64,000 nucleotides of DNA from Sandaracinus amylolyticus (GCF_000737325.1 NZ_CP011125.1:9931945-9995944); one strand, 5' to 3'; positions 8,647 to 54,700 are shown, counted from the first letter of the stretch. Program-made: numbers and translations. Notes: generated by a model not told the origin, from the sequence alone.

Positions 8647-9523
8647 GACCAGCGCTCCCTCGTCCGAGCCCGACGTGGACAAGAAGAAGGCGGCCGACGC
8701 CGCCTTCCTGCGCAACACGCTCGCGCGCCTCGGGACCGCCCTCATCGGCATCCCGATCCTCCTCTATCTGATGTTCTGGGCGCCCTGGTGGGGCTTCCAG
8801 ATCCTCGTCGCGATCGCGATCGCGCGCGCCTCGCACGAGCTCTTCCGGATCACGCACTTCGACTCGAAGCCGATGCACGTGCTCGGCGTCGTGATGTCGC
8901 TCGCGACGACCGCGGTGCTGGTGTTCCTCCGCGACCAGCCGGACGCGCTGCTCGGCCTGATCCTCGGGCTCGGCGCGGTCGGCGCGCTCGGCGGTCTGCT
9001 CGCGCCGCTGCCCTACGATCGCGCCGGCTCGCGCGTCGCGTGGCTGATCGGCGGCCCGCTCTACGTCGGCGGTCTGCTCGGCACCGTCGCGGTGCTGCAC
9101 ACGCTCGAGAAGGGCGGCGCGTGGGTGCTCCTCGCGATGTGGCTCGCGTGGGCGAGCGACACCGGCGCGTACTTCGCGGGCCGCTACTTCGGCAAGACGA
9201 AGCTCTACCCCGCCGTCTCGCCGTCGAAGACCGTGCAGGGCTCGATCGGCGGGCTGCTCGGGTCGCTCACCGGCGGCCTCGCCGCGCACTTCGGGTTCCT
9301 CCCCGAGCTGCCGCTGCTCGACGCCGTCCTGCTCGCGCTCATCGGCGGTGCGCTGGGTCAGATGGGCGACCTCGTCGAGTCGCTCGTCAAGCGCAGCACC
9401 GGCGTGAAGGACAGCGGCTCGATCCTGCCGGGACACGGCGGTCTGCTCGACCGCGTCGATGCGCTGATGTTCACGGCGCTCGCGTGCCTGATCTACGCGA
9501 GCTGGATCCTGCCTCTGCGATAA
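8639..9523 (+). CDS. cdsA: phosphatidate cytidylyltransferase
   Basis: Multi-TM protein with the C-terminal CDS signature (SxxKRxxGVKDSGxxxPGHGGxxDRxD). It overlaps the uppS stop, matching the usual uppS-cdsA arrangement. The start may be the ATG at 8639 (MPETS) or 8606. Confidence 0.85.
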   Translation: MPETSAPSSEPDVDKKKAADAAFLRNTLARLGTALIGIPILLYLMFWAPWWGFQILVAIAIARASHELFRITHFDSKPMHVLGVVMSLATTAVLVFLRDQPDALLGLILGLGAVGALGGLLAPLPYDRAGSRVAWLIGGPLYVGGLLGTVAVLHTLEKGGAWVLLAMWLAWASDTGAYFAGRYFGKTKLYPAVSPSKTVQGSIGGLLGSLTGGLAAHFGFLPELPLLDAVLLALIGGALGQMGDLVESLVKRSTGVKDSGSILPGHGGLLDRVDALMFTALACLIYASWILPLR

Positions 9524-14850: not shown

Positions 14851-15097
14851 GCGTTCGAATGCCCTCCGGTGACGTCGGAGGAGGGCGTTCCGCGCGTTCG
14901 AATGCGCTCCGGGGACGTCGGGGGAGGCTGCTCCAGGCGTTCGAACGCCCTCCGGTGACGTCGGGGGAGGCCATTCCGAGCGTTCGAGCGCGCTCCGGGG
15001 ACGCGCGGGGAGGGCATTCCACCCGGTCGAGAGCGCGCCGGTGACGCCACGGGAGGCGACTCCACGCGTTGGAACGGGCTCCGCGACGTCCTCGCCG
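14851..15097. repeat. tandem array of about 5.7 degenerate copies of a 43-bp hairpin unit
   Basis: Unit GCGTTCGAATGCCCTCCGGTGACGTCGGAGGAGGGCGTTCCGC recurs at 14851, 14894, 14937, 14980, 15024 and 15067. Each unit has a CCTCCG...CGGAGG stem around GTGACGT. Unit 3 begins with the perfect 12-bp palindrome GCGTTCGAACGC. The array is intergenic and has no unique spacers. Confidence 0.85.
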
Positions 15098-46463: not shown

Positions 46464-46559
46464 GATACACGGGCGAAACATCGCGCTCGTGATCGCGCTT
46501 GACGCGCGCGCTGCGCAGACACACACCGCGCCACCTGATTGTCCGCTGAGGAAATGAAC

Positions 46560-47669
46560 ATGGCCGAGCTCACCACCGAGTCGCTCCGCACCGCGCTGTC
46601 GAAGGTCGTCGATCCGGTGTTCGAAAAGCCGATGCTCGACATCGGCGCGCTGACCGATCTGTCGGTGGAGCCCGGTGGCGAGGTGAAGGTGCGCGCGCAC
46701 CTCGCGACTCCGTCGAGCACCGTGCACGCGAAGGTGCGCGAGGAGATCGAGCGCGCGGCGCGCGAGGCCGGCGCGACGGCGGTCGACATCGCGATCGACG
46801 TGCAGGTCCCGACGCGCGAGGTGATGGGCGACGACCCGATCCCCGGCGTGAAGAACGTCGTGCTCGTGATGAGCGGCAAGGGCGGCGTCGGGAAGAGCAC
46901 GACCGCCGTGAACCTGACGCTCGCGCTCAAGCGCGCGGGGCTGCGCGTCGGCATCCTCGACGCGGACATCTACGGCCCGTCGATCCCGACGATGATGGGC
47001 GTGCACGGCCACCCGCCGACGCGCGACGACAAGAAGATCCTCCCGCTCGAGCGCTTCGGCGTGAAGATGATGTCGATCGGCTTCCTGCTCGAGGACGACA
47101 AGCAGGCGGTGATCTGGCGCGGACCGATGCTGCACAGCGCGCTGCAGCAGTTCCTCAAGGACGTCGAGTGGGGCGAGCTCGACTACCTCGTGCTCGACCT
47201 GCCGCCGGGCACCGGCGACGTCGCGCTGACGATGGCGCAGAAGCTCAAGGTGAGCGGCGTCGTGATGGTGACCACGCCGCAAGAGGTCGCGCTGCAGGAC
47301 GTCTACAAGTGCGTCTCGATGTGCAGCAAGCTGAGCCTGCCGATCCTCGGCGTGATCGAGAACATGAGCTACTTCGTCGACAGCGCGGGCGTGCGACAGG
47401 AGCTCTTCGGACGCGGCGGCGGCGAGAAGATCGCGGAGTTCGCGAAGGCGCCGCTGCTCGGTCAGATCCCGCTCGAGCCGCCGGTGCGCGAGTGGGGCGA
47501 CAAGGGCATGCCGATCGTGCAGAGCGTGCCCGACAGTGCGAGCGCGAAGGCGTTCACCGCGGTGGCGGACGCGCTGATCGCGAAGGTCGCGAACCTGCAC
47601 TTCGAGCGCACCGGCGGGACTCGCATCCCCGCGGCGAAGGGCCCGACTCGACTGCGCATCGTGCGCTGA
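46560..47669 (+). CDS. apbC: Fe-S cluster carrier ATPase Mrp/ApbC
   Basis: N-terminal DUF59-like domain. Deviant Walker A GKGGVGKST. CxxC. GAGGA Shine-Dalgarno 9 nt upstream of the ATG at 46560. Confidence 0.85.
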   Translation: MAELTTESLRTALSKVVDPVFEKPMLDIGALTDLSVEPGGEVKVRAHLATPSSTVHAKVREEIERAAREAGATAVDIAIDVQVPTREVMGDDPIPGVKNVVLVMSGKGGVGKSTTAVNLTLALKRAGLRVGILDADIYGPSIPTMMGVHGHPPTRDDKKILPLERFGVKMMSIGFLLEDDKQAVIWRGPMLHSALQQFLKDVEWGELDYLVLDLPPGTGDVALTMAQKLKVSGVVMVTTPQEVALQDVYKCVSMCSKLSLPILGVIENMSYFVDSAGVRQELFGRGGGEKIAEFAKAPLLGQIPLEPPVREWGDKGMPIVQSVPDSASAKAFTAVADALIAKVANLHFERTGGTRIPAAKGPTRLRIVR

Positions 47670-47682
47670 TCGCTCTCTCTCC

Positions 47683-47908
47683 GAGGGCTGCTCGGCCTGC
47701 GTTCGACGTCTTCTCGAGACCCCTGCGCGGGCGGTGGCTTCACGGCGGTGCATGCGAAGGGGGCTTGGCCCCCTCCGCCCCACCCCTTCGGGGCTCGAGA
47801 GTCCGTCGCGCGGGCGTCGGGCACGAGCGCGGCCGGTGGGCATGCTCGATCGTGTCGGTCCCCCGCGAAGCGGGGGCCCCTAGCCGACACTTCGCGGGTC
47901 GCCGAGAT
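47683..47908 (+). repeat. copy A of an approximately 226-bp highly structured repeat element
   Basis: About 95% identical to the copies at 49241-49466 and 51940-52166, both in opposite orientation. Ends CTCGGC...GCCGAG form a 6-bp terminal inverted repeat. It contains several perfect GC hairpins (GGGGGCttgGCCCCC; CCCCCGCgaaGCGGGGG nested in GTCGG...CCGAC) and SphI/XhoI-type palindromes. Confidence 0.9.
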
Positions 47909-47947
47909 CGATGGCCGTGAGATCGACGACGAGGCTGAGTCGTGACC

Positions 47948-48042
47948 GTGAGCGCGCGCTGGAATCACGTCGACCGATGAGGTCGCGCCGTCACCGCGAG
48001 CGCGCGCAGGAATCACGTCGACCGATGAGATCGGCGTGACTC
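47948..48042. repeat. two tandem 47-bp direct repeats
   Basis: GTGAGCGCGCGCTGGAATCACGTCGACCGATGAGGTCGCGCCGTCACC is repeated with a few substitutions. Core GAATCACGTCGACC. It lies between element A and the RDD gene's Shine-Dalgarno. Confidence 0.75.
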
Positions 48043-48073
48043 GAGCGTCCAACGAGACGACAAGGAGGCTCAC

Positions 48074-48535
48074 GTGGCTGCCGAGGTCTCGATGGACTCG
48101 CTCGTTCCTGCCGAGCTCCCCGTTCGCATCGCTGCGCGCGCCATCGACGTCGCGATCGTGGTCGCGATGAACGTCGGGCTCGGTCAGCTGATGGGGTTCG
48201 GATTCGACTGGCTGATCGTGGGCTCGATGCTCGTGCTCGCGTACTTCGCGCTGCTCGACGCGTTCGTGGGCGCGACGTTCGGCAAGCTCGCGCTGGGGCT
48301 ACGCGTGATCGGCCCCGAGGGCGAGCGCGTCACGATGAAGCAGGCGCTCACGCGCGAAGCGTTCACCGTGCTCGGCGCGATCCCTTTCATCGGCCCGATC
48401 CTCGCGCTCGCCGCATGGATCTGGATCGTGGTGACGATCCGCAACAGTCCGCTGCGCCAAGGCCGCCACGACGCGCTCGCAGGCGGCACCCGCGTGGTGC
48501 GCGCTACGAAAACCGTAGCGCTACGAAAACCGTAG
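48074..48535 (+). CDS. RDD-family membrane protein
   Basis: GTG start with AAGGAGG 6 nt upstream. Three TM helices with RDD-like topology. Confidence 0.7.
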   Translation: MAAEVSMDSLVPAELPVRIAARAIDVAIVVAMNVGLGQLMGFGFDWLIVGSMLVLAYFALLDAFVGATFGKLALGLRVIGPEGERVTMKQALTREAFTVLGAIPFIGPILALAAWIWIVVTIRNSPLRQGRHDALAGGTRVVRATKTVALRKP

Positions 48536-48553
48536 CGCTACGAAAACCGTAGC
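48502..48553. repeat. three perfect tandem copies of the 17-bp hairpin GCTACGAAAACCGTAGC
   Basis: Each unit is a 6-bp stem with a 5-nt loop. The first two lie in-frame in the last codons of the RDD CDS (RATKTVALRKP*). The third lies just past the stop. Confidence 0.85.
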
Positions 48554-48621
48554 GCGCGCAGCGCAGGTGCAGGCGCGAGGGACTGCAGGGCGGGCGCCCA
48601 TCGTCCCTCGTTCGCGCCGCA

Positions 48622-49128
48622 TCAACGCGGACCGAACCGACGCTCGAGCTCCGCGTATTTCCGGAGGAACACCTCCTCGTCCAGCTGCTCGCCTGCCGGC
48701 TCGATGGCGCGCGCGACATCCACTGCGAGACGCCTGCCGGTGATCCGCTCGTAAGCCCTTCTCGCTGCGTAACGCATCCCTTCCTGCGAGAACGCGCTGT
48801 CGCCGGACAACCGCGCGAGCGTCAGTGGATCGCGCAGCGCGTTCTCGAAGACCTCGCGCCCGAGCCCGATCAGGCCCGACCGGAAGTCGGTGAATCCGTC
48901 ATCGCTGCACCCGCCCTCGATGACGTAGGCCGCGTGCCAGAGATCCCAGCGATACGCACGCGCGTGCAGGGTCTCGAAGATGTGCGCGAACCCGGCGACG
49001 TCCTCGGGCGTCAACGCGCGCAGCAATCTCTCGAGCACCGCTGGCTGCCCCCGCGCTTCGTCAGCGCTGCGGTGGTCGCACCCACGTCGCGATGCGTCGA
49101 TGAGCGCCCAGAACCACGCTTCGTCCAT
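48622..49128 (-). CDS. DUF4240-like protein
   Basis: MDEAWFWALIDASRR...YRWDLWHAAYVIEGGCSDDGF. I recall this as DUF4240; assignment from memory. Confidence 0.55.
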   Translation of the reverse strand: MDEAWFWALIDASRRGCDHRSADEARGQPAVLERLLRALTPEDVAGFAHIFETLHARAYRWDLWHAAYVIEGGCSDDGFTDFRSGLIGLGREVFENALRDPLTLARLSGDSAFSQEGMRYAARRAYERITGRRLAVDVARAIEPAGEQLDEEVFLRKYAELERRFGPR

Positions 49129-49240
49129 CGCTTCATCCTACCGCGCGGTCTCGCCGCGACCCTGAGTCGCTCGATGGCCACGCACGCCCCGCGCCGAGCT
49201 TCCCGAGCCAGCCCGCGCGTCGAAGCTCACCGCCTTTGTT

Positions 49241-49466
49241 CTCGGCGATCCGCGAAGTGTCGGCTAGGGCCCCCGCTTCGCGGGGGACCGACACGATCGA
49301 GCATGCCCACCGGCCGCGCTCGTGCCCGACGACCACGCGACGGACTCTCGAGCCCCGAAGGGGGTGGGGCGGAGGGGGCAGAGCCCCCTTCGCATGCACC
49401 GCCGTGAAGCCCGCCGCCCGCGCAGGGATCTCGAGACGACGTCGAACGCAAGCCGAGCAGCCCTCG
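49241..49466 (-). repeat. copy B of the approximately 226-bp structured element (inverted relative to A)
   Basis: Reverse complement aligns along the full length of copy A. Differences fall mainly in hairpin loops (for example cttgg to ctctg). Confidence 0.9.
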
Positions 49467-49506
49467 CACACGCTCGCGCAGCGAGAGAGGCCGAGCGGCC
49501 CGAGCG

Positions 49507-50004
49507 CTATGCGACGTTCGCTTCGCGCGGAGGGTCGCCCATGCGCATCGCGCGCCGCCACACGCCCGTGCTCTCTTCGGCGAGGTACTCGCTGCGCGTC
49601 GGCACTCCGTCGAACACCAGGCCCATGCCCGGCAGGTTCGTGCGGCGCGCCCAGATCACGCGACACGGGAAGAAGTACTCGCAGCCCGCTGCTTCGTCGA
49701 CGAGCCGCACGATCACGCGCGCGCCGATCACCGGCGGTCGCGTCGTCGCGATCGCGAGGCCGTTGCCGCTCAGGTTCTTCACCTCGCCGGACTCGAAGCA
49801 CCCCGGCATCGTGAAGCTCACGGTCTTCGGGAACGGCAGTCGCGGCATCGTGCGCGCACCTGGGCTGCCGTCGCCGGTCAGCAGGCGCCCGAGCCCGAAG
49901 AGGCGCGCGCGCTCGTCGTCGTCGAGCGGGACCTCCAGACGATCCTGCTTCGCCCGGAGGAGCTGATACTCGAAGATCATCTCGAGGACGTTGCGGGTCG
50001 TCAT
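49507..50004 (-). CDS. PilZ-domain protein (putative c-di-GMP receptor)
   Basis: GGGAGG 5 nt upstream of the ATG at 50004. EMIFEYQLLRAKQDRLEVPLDDDERARL fits the RxxxR...D/NxSxxG PilZ pattern (RLFG...). The upstream track extension is junk. Confidence 0.65.
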   Translation of the reverse strand: MTTRNVLEMIFEYQLLRAKQDRLEVPLDDDERARLFGLGRLLTGDGSPGARTMPRLPFPKTVSFTMPGCFESGEVKNLSGNGLAIATTRPPVIGARVIVRLVDEAAGCEYFFPCRVIWARRTNLPGMGLVFDGVPTRSEYLAEESTGVWRRAMRMGDPPREANVA

Positions 50005-50240
50005 CGACGCCTCCCTTGTGATGCTCCCGATTTCTGCAACCGAGGTGCCACGAGCCACGAATCGATCGGTTCCGACGCACGCCCCACGCGAAAGTTCTCG
50101 ATCTGCCTCGCGACCTGCGCGCACGGGTGGGGCGCGACGGTCGGACAGCCGTGTCATGGTTCGCGTTGGATCCGCGTACCCGGGTACGCACTCTGCGTCC
50201 CGCGCTCCGCATCCCTTGCGTAGTAGAAGCAGCGCAGTCG

Positions 50241-51665
50241 ATGGACCTGTTCGACCACAAGGAAGATCGCGACCGCGAGGGCGCACCGCTCTCCGATCGC
50301 ATGCGGCCGCGACGTCTCACCGACATGGTCGGACAGCGACATCTCGTGGCCGAGGGCTCGCTGCTCCGTCGCGCGATCCAGCAGGACCGGATCCCGTCGA
50401 TGATCCTCTGGGGCCCGCCCGGCACCGGGAAGACGACGCTCGCGCGCGCGGTCGCCGCGGAGACCAAGGCGGTGTTCGTCCCGTTCAGCGCGGTGATGAG
50501 CGGCGTGCCCGAGCTGCGGAAGATCCTGGCCGAGGCTGCGGAGCGGAAGCGCCTGCACGGCACGCGCACGATCCTCTTCGTCGACGAGATCCACCGCTGG
50601 AACAAGGCGCAGCAGGACGCGCTGCTGCCCCACGTCGAGCGCGGCGCGGTGGTGCTGATCGGCGCGACCACCGAGAACCCGAGCTTCGCGGTGAACGCGG
50701 CGCTGCTCTCACGAGCGCGCGTGTTCCGCCTCGAGCCGCACGAGCCGAGCGATCTGCGCGCGCTGCTCGAGCGCGCGATGAGCGACCGCGAGCACGGCCT
50801 CGGCAAGCTCGCGCTCACCGTGGATCCCGAGGCGCTCGGCGTGATCGCGGAGATGGCGCAAGGCGACGCGCGTCGTGCGCTCGACGTGCTCGAACTCGCG
50901 GCGAACGACGCGACGGCGAGGAAGGTCGCGCTCGATCGCGAGGCGGTGGAGCAAGCGCTCGCGTCGCGCACGCTGCTCTACGACAAGAGCGGCGAGGAGC
51001 ACTACAACGTCGTCTCCGCGTTCATCAAGTCGATGCGTGGCAGCGATCCCGACGCCGCGATCTACTGGATGATGCGCATGCTCGAGGCCGGCGAAGATCC
51101 GCTCTTCGTGATGCGGCGCCTGGTCATCTTCGCGAGCGAGGACGTCGGCAACGCGGACCCGAACGCGCTGCAGATCGCGGTCGCGGCGGACGCGGCGTTC
51201 CGTCGGCTCGGCATGCCCGAGGGCCTCCATCCGCTCGCGCAGTGCTGCACGTACCTCGCGAGCACCGTGAAGAGCAACGCGAGCTACGAAGCGTGGCAGC
51301 GCGCGCAGGACGCGGTGAAGCAACACGGCCCGCTCCCCGTGCCCATGAAGCTGCGCAACGCAGCGACCAAACACATGAAGGCGTGGGGATACGGCGAGGG
51401 CTACCGCTATCCGCACGCCGAGGGCGGCCACGCGCAGGGCGAGACGTACTTGCCCGACGCGCTCGTGGGCGCGCGCTTCTACGAGCCGAAGGACATCGGC
51501 ATCGAGTCGCGGATCAAACAGCGCCTCGCGAAGCTCCGCGGCGACGAGCGACCGCCCACCGAAGACCCGCCGCGCGCCGAAAACGACGCCCGCCGCACCG
51601 ACCGTTCGCGCCCCGACGTCCCGCGTGAGGAAGGCCCCCGCACCGACCCCCCGGACGAGCGCTGA
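50241..51665 (+). CDS. rarA: replication-associated recombination protein A (AAA+ ATPase)
   Basis: Walker A GPPGTGKTT, Walker B ILFVDEIHR, sensor and MgsA C-terminal domain. Followed by a Pro/Arg/Asp-rich tail. Confidence 0.9.
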   Translation: MDLFDHKEDRDREGAPLSDRMRPRRLTDMVGQRHLVAEGSLLRRAIQQDRIPSMILWGPPGTGKTTLARAVAAETKAVFVPFSAVMSGVPELRKILAEAAERKRLHGTRTILFVDEIHRWNKAQQDALLPHVERGAVVLIGATTENPSFAVNAALLSRARVFRLEPHEPSDLRALLERAMSDREHGLGKLALTVDPEALGVIAEMAQGDARRALDVLELAANDATARKVALDREAVEQALASRTLLYDKSGEEHYNVVSAFIKSMRGSDPDAAIYWMMRMLEAGEDPLFVMRRLVIFASEDVGNADPNALQIAVAADAAFRRLGMPEGLHPLAQCCTYLASTVKSNASYEAWQRAQDAVKQHGPLPVPMKLRNAATKHMKAWGYGEGYRYPHAEGGHAQGETYLPDALVGARFYEPKDIGIESRIKQRLAKLRGDERPPTEDPPRAENDARRTDRSRPDVPREEGPRTDPPDER

Positions 51666-51742
51666 CGCCCATCCAGCACCCAGCTTCGGATCCCGATCGC
51701 ACATCGCGCGCGCTCATCCAACCGAGCGCGCGCAGCTCGCTC

Positions 51743-51918
51743 GCACGTCGCGCGCTCTTCCGAATCACACGTCGCGCTCGCCCGAAAACACATCGCGCTG
51801 TTCCGCCGAATCGCACGTCGCGCGCTGTTCCGAATCACGCGTCGCGCTCTTCCGAATCACACGTCGCGCTCTTCCGAATCAGACGTCGCGCGCTCTTCCG
51901 CCGAATCGCACCGACCGT
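51743..51918. repeat. array of about seven 22-27-bp direct repeats (iteron-like)
   Basis: Units ACGTCGCGCGCTCTTCCGAATCAC with variants (GCCGAATCGC, CCGAAAACAC). The array abuts copy C of the 226-bp element. Confidence 0.8.
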
Positions 51919-51939
51919 GTCGATCGAACCGCCAGAGTG

Positions 51940-52166
51940 CTCGGCACCCCGCGAAGTGTCGGCTAGGGGCCCCCGCACAGCGGGGGACCGACACGATCGA
52001 GCATGCCCACCGGCCGCGCTCGTGCCCGACGACCACGCGACGGACTCTCGAGCCCGAAGGGGGTGGGGCGGAGGGGGCCAAGCCCCCTTCGCATGCACCG
52101 CCGTGAAGCCCGCCGCCCGCGCAGGGATCTCGAGAAGCCGTCGAACGCAAGCCGAGCAGCCCTCGC
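51940..52166 (-). repeat. copy C of the approximately 226-bp structured element (same orientation as B)
   Basis: Near-identical to the reverse complement of copy A. Same CTCGGC/GCCGAG ends. Confidence 0.9.
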
Positions 52167-52198
52167 ACGACACGAAAAGGCCGAGCGGCCCCGAGCAC

Positions 52199-52879
52199 CT
52201 ACCAGCGGACCGATCCCTCGAGCTGCCTCGGCGTCTCTCCGAGCGAGATCTCGACGTGCGCGCCCGGGTACGAGCCGGCCTCGAGCAGCGCGACGCCGTA
52301 GCCCTCGAGGAAGCGATGCCACGCGACGCAGCGTCGCGCCTCCTCGGGCATCTCCTCGATGCGGAAGCGCGTCGCGCGCTCGCCCATCTCGACCACCACC
52401 ATGCGCCCGAGATCGCGAGTCACCGCGCGCCAGACGTGCGGCGAGACGCGCAGCAGGTGACCCGGCGCGCCTCCGTAGGAGCGCATCCAGCTCCGCAGGA
52501 TCGGAGAGAGCACGCCGCCGCTCATGTTGTCGAGCAGCCGCGCGCGCCCGAACGCGGCGATGCCGTCGTCCCCGTACTCCGCCGCGACCGACTCGAGGAT
52601 CACGATGTGGTACGCGACGGGGCACCACGAGCCATCGAGCGCGCTGTCGATCCAGGAGCGGACCTTCGGCATGCGCGCGATCGCACGCGCGCGGACACGA
52701 GGCCACTGCCCGAGGTCGATCAGCGTACGACGGACGCCCGAGACCACCGCGGACGCGATGCGCGGCTCCTCGGCGACCGTCACCGCGACGAACGGTTGAC
52801 GTGCCAGCAATGTCACTCCCCCCATCGCGATTCTAACAGCCTGTCCAGCGTTCGCTCGACCCCTGATACGAATCGTCAC
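52199..52879 (-). CDS. hypothetical protein (possibly a Myxococcales-restricted family)
   Basis: Coding-like composition. An alternative start (MGGVTLLARQ) lies at about 52825. No recognisable catalytic motif. Confidence 0.45.
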   Translation of the reverse strand: MTIRIRGRANAGQAVRIAMGGVTLLARQPFVAVTVAEEPRIASAVVSGVRRTLIDLGQWPRVRARAIARMPKVRSWIDSALDGSWCPVAYHIVILESVAAEYGDDGIAAFGRARLLDNMSGGVLSPILRSWMRSYGGAPGHLLRVSPHVWRAVTRDLGRMVVVEMGERATRFRIEEMPEEARRCVAWHRFLEGYGVALLEAGSYPGAHVEISLGETPRQLEGSVRW

Positions 52880-54260: not shown

Positions 54261-54700
54261 GGAAGACCACGTCGAAGGTCTTCGGTGAGCCCGTCGTGCT
54301 CGCCGCGCGTCCTCTTTCGAGCAGTTTTCGAGGAAAGCAGGAGGGTTGGGAAGACCACGTCGAAGGGTCCTGCCGTGAGCCCTCCATGCTCGGAGCGCGT
54401 CCTCTTCGAGCAGTTTTGAGGAACGCAGGAGGGTTGGGAAGACCACGTCGAAGGTCTCCTCGTCGACCTCGAAGCGCTCGGAATCCTCAAATCGGCAGGC
54501 TCGTGAAGACGCGGCGAGGAGCGACTGGCGCAGCGCCGTGGTCTTCCTTCCCCCCTGCCTTCCTCAAAAAAATCCGGAAGGCCCCATCGGGCGCTCCGAG
54601 GATCGACCTGGCGCAGCGCCGTGGTCTTCCTTCTCCTCCTGCCTTCCTCAAAAAATCCGAAGGGCCCGTTCGATCGCGCTCCGAGCAGCCTCCTGCTCTC
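54261..54700. repeat. composite array of about 2.5 direct and about 2 inverted copies of an approximately 88-bp unit
   Basis: Direct units start at 54261, 54349 and 54437; each begins with the palindrome GAAGACCACGTCGAAGGTCTTC. At 54530-54700 there are two copies of the reverse complement of the unit junction (CGCCGTGGTCTTCC|TTCCCCCCTGCCTTCCTCAAAAAAATCC). The array ends 150 bp before the start of the giant gene. Confidence 0.8.

Follow-up and report, generated by a model that had tools for sequence, protein, structure and literature searches.

Short, hairpin-rich DNA between bacterial genes is known in several forms. Repeats of the ERIC/BIME type are short and non-coding, lie after genes in either orientation, form stable hairpins, are thought to act on transcript ends or transcript stability, and occur in tens to hundreds of dispersed copies. 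REP, BIME and REPIN sequences consist of a palindromic unit of 20-40 nt, usually reach hundreds of copies and are associated with a RAYT transposase. Bacterial small RNAs derived from the 3' untranslated region (3'-UTR) and stabilising hairpins sit directly after the stop codon on the strand of the gene, with conserved blocks and strong hairpins, and putative mobile promoters, reportedly described by Matus-Garcia et al. in 2012, are said to be homologous intergenic DNA upstream of unrelated genes. [quoted passage not shown] Here we describe an element from a 64-kb stretch of DNA (the window) of Sandaracinus amylolyticus DSM 53668, in which it is present three times, the copies being labelled c1, c2 and c3. 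RarA as encoded in the window is 100% identical to the S. amylolyticus protein, and several of the window's proteins have DSM 53668 accessions. The element belongs, as yet unclassified, to the broad class of bacterial intergenic and 3'-UTR repeats that are rich in hairpins; it is lineage-restricted and local on present evidence, and it is neither a MITE nor a covariation-supported RNA family.

The cores of the three copies were located by inspection of the sequence, a repeat finder, MAFFT and blastn at 47682-47906 on the plus strand (c1; CGAGGG...GCCGAG, 225 nt), 49241-49466 on the minus strand (c2) and 51940-52165 on the minus strand (c3). In blastn and MAFFT comparisons c1 shares 94.7% identity with c2 (228 columns, E 4e-97) and 93.4% with c3 (226 columns, E 8e-94), a similarity that far exceeds chance. 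The original prediction, made from the sequence of the window, of three copies about 95% identical with one inverted relative to the other two was thus borne out (93-95%; c1 plus, c2 and c3 minus), and its coordinates were right within 1-2 nt. Also present as it had claimed are CTCGGC/GCCGAG close to both ends of the window copies, 6-bp palindromes (CTCGAG and GCATGC twice each and CGATCG once in every copy) and GC stems of 6-7 bp, perfectly paired, that close 3-nt loops. The G+C content of the element is 74%. No fourth copy, even a diverged one, was detected in the window by blastn with a word size of 7 or by nhmmer (--max, six-copy profile), and about 82 kb of related loci hold no copies away from the known sites.

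The repeat is non-coding, since G+C is flat over the codon positions, no frame having the third-position excess expected for a 72% G+C genome, and since single-base, frameshifting insertions and deletions separate the copies in the MAFFT alignment. No Pfam family matched the open reading frames (ORFs) overlying the copies, and a 113-aa ORF over c3 gave only a chance match among 1.84 billion representative proteins. Concatenated protein or frame queries in a word-indexed protein search missed the window's own RDD and DUF4240 clusters, so that null results from such concatenates carry no weight.

All three copies lie in intergenic DNA downstream of a gene on their own strand. Pfam assignments give the order apbC/Mrp (+), c1, RDD (+), DUF4240 (-), c2, PilZ (-), rarA (+), a 22-nt tandem array, c3 and a gene of 226 aa (-). 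Upstream of c1 is the apbC/Mrp-NBP35 gene (46539..47669, +; PF10609, 3.6e-101; start codon uncertain), and upstream of c2 a PilZ-domain gene (49507..50004, -), identified by Pfam and with an identical protein on record as S. amylolyticus PilZ. Upstream of c3 is a 226-aa ORF (52199..52879, -) to which no function is assigned, which is annotated shorter in a second S. amylolyticus genome (CP070225) and whose product has no Pfam or NCBIfam match. The cores start 12 nt (c1), 40 nt (c2) and 33 nt (c3) after the same-strand stop codon, a distance that shrinks to 0-1 nt when the leader described below is included, and each copy is oriented as the gene whose stop it abuts. The gene-downstream position given in the original prediction therefore holds for all three copies, with one correction: c3 had been placed before the 52199..52879 gene, but that gene is on the minus strand and c3 is 33 nt downstream of its stop.

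The complete module is about 265-285 nt long and consists of a leader of 33-40 nt, a core of 226 nt and a short tail. The leader, GCTCGGGGCCGCTCGGCCT..., is an additional stretch that c2 and c3 have in common (gapped pairwise alignment; p = 0.0016 versus window controls). In c2 it occupies 49467..49506 (-), begins directly after the PilZ stop codon (49507-49509) and carries GGCCGCTCGGCC (49489-49500) followed by a pyrimidine run; in c3 it occupies 52166..52198 (-) and immediately follows the 226-aa gene's stop codon (52199-52201). Most of it is lost in c1, where a remnant (TCGCTCTCTCTC; 47670..47681, +) fills the space from the apbC stop codon (47667-47669) to the core; alignment with the second strain, which has a full 42-nt leader at this site, places two deletions in the window genome. 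On the 3' side the pattern GCCGAG-N6-GGCSGT extends the copies by about 12 nt and is in register in all three, the tails lying at 47907..47918 (+; N6-GGCCGT) in c1, 49229..49240 (-) in c2 and 51928..51939 (-) in c3. Similarity beyond it is not above chance, and the 3' boundary of the element is fuzzy.

The history of the three copies was read from the corresponding loci of other genomes: the second S. amylolyticus genome (L104), the related loci L105, L106, L107, L109, L110 and L111, and the more distant L101-L103. The deeper lineages have about 84-86% nucleotide identity to the window. Behind PilZ, L110 and L111 carry a full-length copy and L105 a partial one cut by the contig end; L106 has none there, a different gene beginning after 28 nt. 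The c3 site is empty in L105 and L106, where the stop codons of rarA and the converging gene are 13 nt and 0 nt apart, respectively, and the c1 site is empty in L107, where 12 nt separate the apbC stop from that of a converging gene, homologous to one of 196 aa in the annotation of the second strain. The element had no match in L101-L103. The more distant relatives are without RDD, DUF4240 and the 226-aa gene near rarA; a stretch orthologous to the 226-aa ORF is present in L104, with the regions in L105 and L106 likewise aligning to it. Comparison of these loci shows c2 to be the founding copy, whose orthologues occupy this site in no fewer than four Sandaracinus lineages, and c1 and c3 to be later local duplicates, since relatives have empty sites. 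Both were, on this comparison, copied within the S. amylolyticus lineage, 1.5-2.7 kb away, into tight spacers between convergent genes, so that the empty sites demonstrate duplicative copying to new places. That c1 and c3 abut stop codons can be attributed to these spacers, which offered almost no other room.

In the second strain the element occupies these three sites too, and the three copies are therefore older than the split of the two strains, but each is damaged by deletions. The second strain's c1 ends at about core position 160, where a MarR-MFS gene pair is inserted, its c2 lacks 30 internal nt, the deletion lying between GTGG repeats, and its c3 is missing 32 internal nt as well as leader and 3' end while retaining the TGT loop that marks c3. 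Alignment of these remnants shows that the copies decay by deletions between short direct repeats. Window c2 is 98% identical (196/200) to the c1 copy of the second strain, which in turn is 95% identical to its own orthologue; being closer to c2 than to its orthologue, this c1 points to gene conversion among the local copies.

Judged from the alignments, the core is under purifying selection, with conserved blocks between variable linkers. Between the window and the second strain the element is 91-95% identical, compared with 81-92% for third codon positions and 75% for the 84 nt between c2 and DUF4240. Against L105 the core reaches 85% (111/130), third positions 66-78% and the PilZ-rarA promoter region 78%. 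In L110 the whole spacer is only 77% identical because variable linkers lower the average; its central blocks, which run from CGGCGGTGCATGC through GTCGTCGGGCA, and the 3' hairpin are about 95% identical, as against 63% for PilZ third positions and 78% for the PilZ-rarA region, and a 48-nt stretch is identical to c3. The difference between blocks of about 95% and synonymous-type sites of 63% indicates selection. The element probably does something, its oldest copy being conserved across lineages.

The core holds three local hairpins, an apical GC hairpin, one of the C(UUCG)G type and a 39-nt two-tier GC hairpin near the 3' end. The apical hairpin, AGGGGGC-TTG-GCCCCCT in c1 (47758..47774, +), was defined from the sequence and a loop/stem comparison; it lies at 49373-49389 (-) in c2, with the loop TCT, and at 52072-52088 (-) in c3. 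Over all copies its loop is TTG or TCT, and a single stem mismatch occurs, in L105. The small hairpin, CCCC-UUCG-GGGG with its UUCG-type tetraloop on the forward strand, is located at 47783..47792 (+), 49354-49363 (-) and 52053-52062 (-) in c1, c2 and c3, respectively, and forms separately in the fold of the L110 copy. The 3' hairpin reads GTGTCGG-TCCCCCGC-GAA-GCGGGGG-CCCCTAG-CCGACAC in c1 (47852..47890, +) and is found at 49257-49294 (-) in c2 and, with the loop TGT, at 51956-51994 (-) in c3. Six copies reach its loop, which is GAA, GAA, TGT, TGT, GGT or GGA, and five keep the whole hairpin; its roughly 30 stem positions contain one change, from U.G to U-A. Only the two local GC hairpins behave as structure, their stems being frozen and their loops free. 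The earlier observation that substitutions fall in loops rather than stems is correct for these two 3-nt loops and does not extend to the long-range helices, which are broken in L105 and L110.

We tentatively favour, as the best of several possible accounts rather than as one held with confidence, a function as a 3'-end element of the upstream gene, either a terminator or a 3' stabiliser, that insulates convergent genes and is possibly a source of small RNA. The module would form the 3' end of the upstream gene's transcript, which its very stable hairpins would terminate or protect, insulating the closely packed convergent genes as well, and a 3'-UTR-derived small RNA might be released from it. 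This 3'-end function is suggested by an unvarying placement and orientation with respect to the stop codon upstream, by an upstream gene that is constant across lineages while the downstream gene is variable, by frozen stems with free loops, by a terminator-like c3 leader and by the conservation of the sequence. The element resembles 3'-UTR small RNAs and stabilising hairpins in following a stop codon on the gene's strand, with conserved blocks and strong hairpins; it differs from them in having no U-run terminator and in that one 3' module stands behind three unrelated genes, which is unusual.

Several observations weigh against this account. Alignments of 3, 4 or 7 copies contain no genuine compensatory base pair; two flagged pairs are dubious, 85-89 depending on a deleted, misaligned copy and 224-236 falling in the poorly aligned 3' tail, where RNAalifold places a helix only in the 4-copy alignment. 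Only a few one-sided changes preserve a predicted pair. The covariation term is positive, about eight predicted long-range pairs are broken by substitutions in the most diverged copies (L105 and L110), the predicted long-range helices shift with the set of copies used, and folding z-scores are only -1.0 to -2.6 versus dinucleotide shuffles on either strand. Selection on the overall RNA fold, as originally suggested, is thus not supported. The C-rich arm of the apical region (GCCCCCTCCGCCCCACCCCC) is invariant and its predicted partner variable, which hints at a constraint other than intramolecular pairing. As to termination, SPRITE and terminator-like repeats are marked by a G+C-rich hairpin with a T-run after it. 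A small hairpin followed by TTTT in the c3 leader was terminator-like in the scan (52194-52181), the only one of the three leaders to pass; the c2 leader repeats this hairpin, with TCTCTC as its tail. The stem measures only 4-5 bp, and L110 lacks the hairpin. The large hairpins are not followed by a U-run, with the 3' hairpin read on both strands. All three copies of the second strain carry deletions, so that in that strain at least the copies are dispensable. Finally, the agreement in orientation of three out of three copies has, taken alone, a chance probability of about 0.125.

If the element does act at 3' ends, it would be a clean natural case of a conserved non-coding unit duplicated behind unrelated neighbours in a little-studied myxobacterial genus, and a concrete candidate for RNA-end mapping in S. 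amylolyticus. A bolder version of the 3'-end account, to which we would give little credence, is that of a mobile or copyable non-coding module that has no terminal inverted repeats and lands directly after stop codons in tight spacers of convergent genes; it would give unrelated genes the same conserved 3'-end RNA module and so build a small co-regulated set by spreading a 3' UTR and not a promoter.

We consider it unlikely that the element is a non-autonomous transposable element, a MITE or a relative without terminal repeats, belonging to a genome-wide family and moved by an unseen enzyme into terminator-like convergent spacers, of which the window would contain one local cluster. There were at least two duplicative insertions into previously near-empty spacers, the copies occur in both orientations, the paralogues are as alike as orthologues between the strains, and breakpoints of later gene insertions or deletions lie inside the element. 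At 226-285 nt, non-coding and with stable hairpins, it also matches MITEs in being shorter than 500 bp (PMC10969869). Its ends speak against such an origin, however: inverted matches between the two ends reach 5-8 bp at best (p 0.2-0.9 versus window controls), and the 6-bp pair CTCGGC/GCCGAG is replaced by GTGTCC/GGCGAG in the orthologous copies of L105 and L110. No target-site duplication was seen at the three copies, whose insertions are old and whose 3' edge is fuzzy. The three copies lie within 4.5 kb and the other 59 kb of the window hold none, the PilZ copy is old and under purifying selection, and 74% G+C contrasts with the A+T-richness typical of MITEs (PMC10969869). The original proposal of a MITE/REP-like element is accordingly not supported, and the data carry the claim neither of a MITE nor of a covarying structured-RNA family.

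Searches in wider collections returned no relatives. Distant blastn against plasmids and phages gave no match, and three patterns, two of them from perfectly conserved blocks, had 0 matches in viral contigs. The 18-mer GGTGGGCATGCTCGATCG had 100 single matches in a genome collection, in unrelated taxa and none extending beyond about 30 nt, the source genome not being among them. Metagenome scans with a 24-mer and a 22-mer gave 0 matches, weak nulls in that both patterns span positions that differ in L105 and L110. The genome paper of the organism does not describe the repeat (PMC5010890). Compared with prokaryotic MITEs such as Correia, Chunjie and QMITE, the element is alike in size, intergenic position, absence of coding capacity, predicted stable transcript structure and duplicative spread, but it has no significant terminal repeats, no direct-repeat flanks and no known parent insertion sequence, is G+C-rich, has a very low copy number in the data reached and includes one copy that is old and under selection. 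With ERIC/BIME-type repeats it has in common that it is short, non-coding, placed after genes in either orientation and rich in stable hairpins, with a suspected action on transcript ends or stability (PMC10969869); it differs in that only three, local copies are known, the long-range pairing is not conserved, one of three leaders is terminator-like and there is no similarity in Rfam.

It is likewise rather improbable that the element is a small-RNA gene, a cis-acting leader or a mobile promoter serving the downstream gene, which would be RDD (MarR in the second strain) for c1 and DUF4240 for c2, with c3 an orphan. Block conservation comparable with or above that of the PilZ-rarA promoter region would fit, as would the invariant C-rich tract with its anti-Shine-Dalgarno-like CCUCC and varying predicted partner, the UUCG-type tetraloop on the forward strand only, and the location of c1 and c2 upstream of unrelated lineage-specific genes on the same strand. 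The last point is also what likens the element to putative mobile promoters; the differences are that no promoter signal was found in it, that its constant neighbour is the upstream gene and that c3 is without a downstream gene. No promoter- or terminator-like signal delimits a discrete RNA, and the downstream gene varies, having a different N-terminus in L110 and being MarR in the second strain. DUF4240, moreover, is preceded by a conserved TAGGAT box of its own, located 100 nt past the core and 6 nt ahead of the ATG. Rfam 15 gave 0 matches at gathering score in the window, in line with the original statement that the repeat was not recognised as a described family; at E up to 10 only mir-343 (microRNA-precursor) models of about 20 bits overlap the copies, far below gathering score.

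We regard as very unlikely a site acting at the DNA level, that is, a protein-binding platform or a hairpin-prone recombination hotspot at the edges of variable gene islands. The apbC-PilZ interval has three gene contents in the five genomes or contigs covering at least part of it, c1 and c2 stand at its edges as an inverted pair, and the junction of the MarR-MFS insertion in the second strain is inside c1; GCTCGG recurs in leader, core and tail, and a 6-mer pair downstream of c2 changes in both halves. Yet no recombinase or integrase gene was noticed beside the copies in the window or in relatives, c3 flanks no island, and the 196-aa gene between c1 and c2 appears ancestral, so that the stretch from c1 to c2 is not one inserted unit.

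A functionless, neutral local segmental duplication, the interpretation that the original prediction had reserved for a repeat with no further copies and no covariation, agrees with the confinement of the three copies, two of them later duplicates, to 4.5 kb in the data reached, with the lack of covariation and with the decay of the second-strain copies by deletion, but it is highly improbable, as conservation of the core, at two evolutionary depths, far exceeds that of synonymous sites and of the adjacent spacer, and its stems are frozen while its loops are free.

Further candidates were considered and rejected. A REP, BIME or REPIN assignment does not agree with a unit of 226 nt or more that contains several different hairpins and was seen in only three copies, nor does an ERIC-like single long imperfect palindrome agree with long-range helices that vary with the copy set. 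Integron attC sites have RYYYAAC ... GTTRRRY core sites, are 57-141 bp long and form arrays in one orientation; here the only GTT-heptamer, GTTCGAC, does not fit GTTRRRY, and the element is longer, occurs in opposite orientations and lies behind core genes. For a group II intron fragment, GTGCG precedes only c2 and c3 and Rfam gives no domain V/VI match; for a retron msr/msd, a nearby reverse transcriptase gene and long a1/a2 repeats are both missing. No GEMM match at E up to 10 points to a c-di-GMP riboswitch beside PilZ, a putative sigma-54 promoter in the core does not retain its spacing in L110, and the G-rich strand has only three runs of at least three G, which argues against a G-quadruplex. 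The ancestral appearance of the 196-aa gene also speaks against c1 and c2 being the ends of one inserted transposon.

The apbC-PilZ interval (window 47661-49548) is in its own right a hotspot of gene gain and loss, its edges marked by the element. In L101 and L102 the two genes are directly adjacent and convergent with nothing between them, and L106 and L107 apparently have only the 196-aa-type gene, each contig showing one end. The window has RDD and DUF4240, and the second strain MarR, MFS, RDD, the 196-aa gene and DUF4240.

Variation is also seen around the individual copies. In L105 (134-223) and L109 (1183-1271) the leader of the PilZ copy contains about four tandem units of about 16 nt (TCTTCGCTGCGCGGGC), of which the window has one. 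Downstream of c2, at 49194-49209 on the minus strand, the window has the direct 6-mer pair GCTCGG-GAA-GCTCGG, the second strain GTACGG-GAA-GTACGG and L110 GTACGT-GGT-GTACGG; from the window to the second strain, the two halves have changed together. The TAGGAT box at 49135-49140 (minus), -10-like and placed 6 nt ahead of the ATG with which the gene downstream of c2 starts, is the same in L104 (about 8943-8948), and L110 has TACACT at the equivalent place (about 1303-1308) ahead of a different gene; a -10-like box only 6 nt from the ATG suggests leaderless mRNAs.

Tandem repeats are frequent in the region. A 48-nt repeat in 1.9 copies (47941-48033) is located between c1 and the start of RDD; the MarR-MFS pair takes the place of this stretch and of the 3' third of c1 in the second strain. 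A perfect 17-nt repeat in 3.2 copies (GCGCTACGAAAACCGTA; 48501-48555) overlaps the end of the RDD gene and, on the minus strand, forms a 14-bp hairpin followed by TTTT with a terminator-like score. Between rarA and c3 a 22-24-nt array (51744-51900; 6.8 copies, consensus CACGTCGCGCGCTCTTCCGAATCA) is missing in the second strain, where the c3 remnant reaches straight to the rarA stop codon, and L101 has an unrelated 15-nt tandem repeat at this position. Other intergenic arrays (43 nt x 5.6, 88 nt x 2.2 and 83 nt x 1.9), together with a very large gene whose internal repeats of about 165 nt encode CxxxDDDCDG-type units, are found at 14851-15090, 54261-54667 and about 54.7-61.9 kb; relatives have this gene annotated as DUF4114 / MopE-like, with a product of about 2,300 aa.

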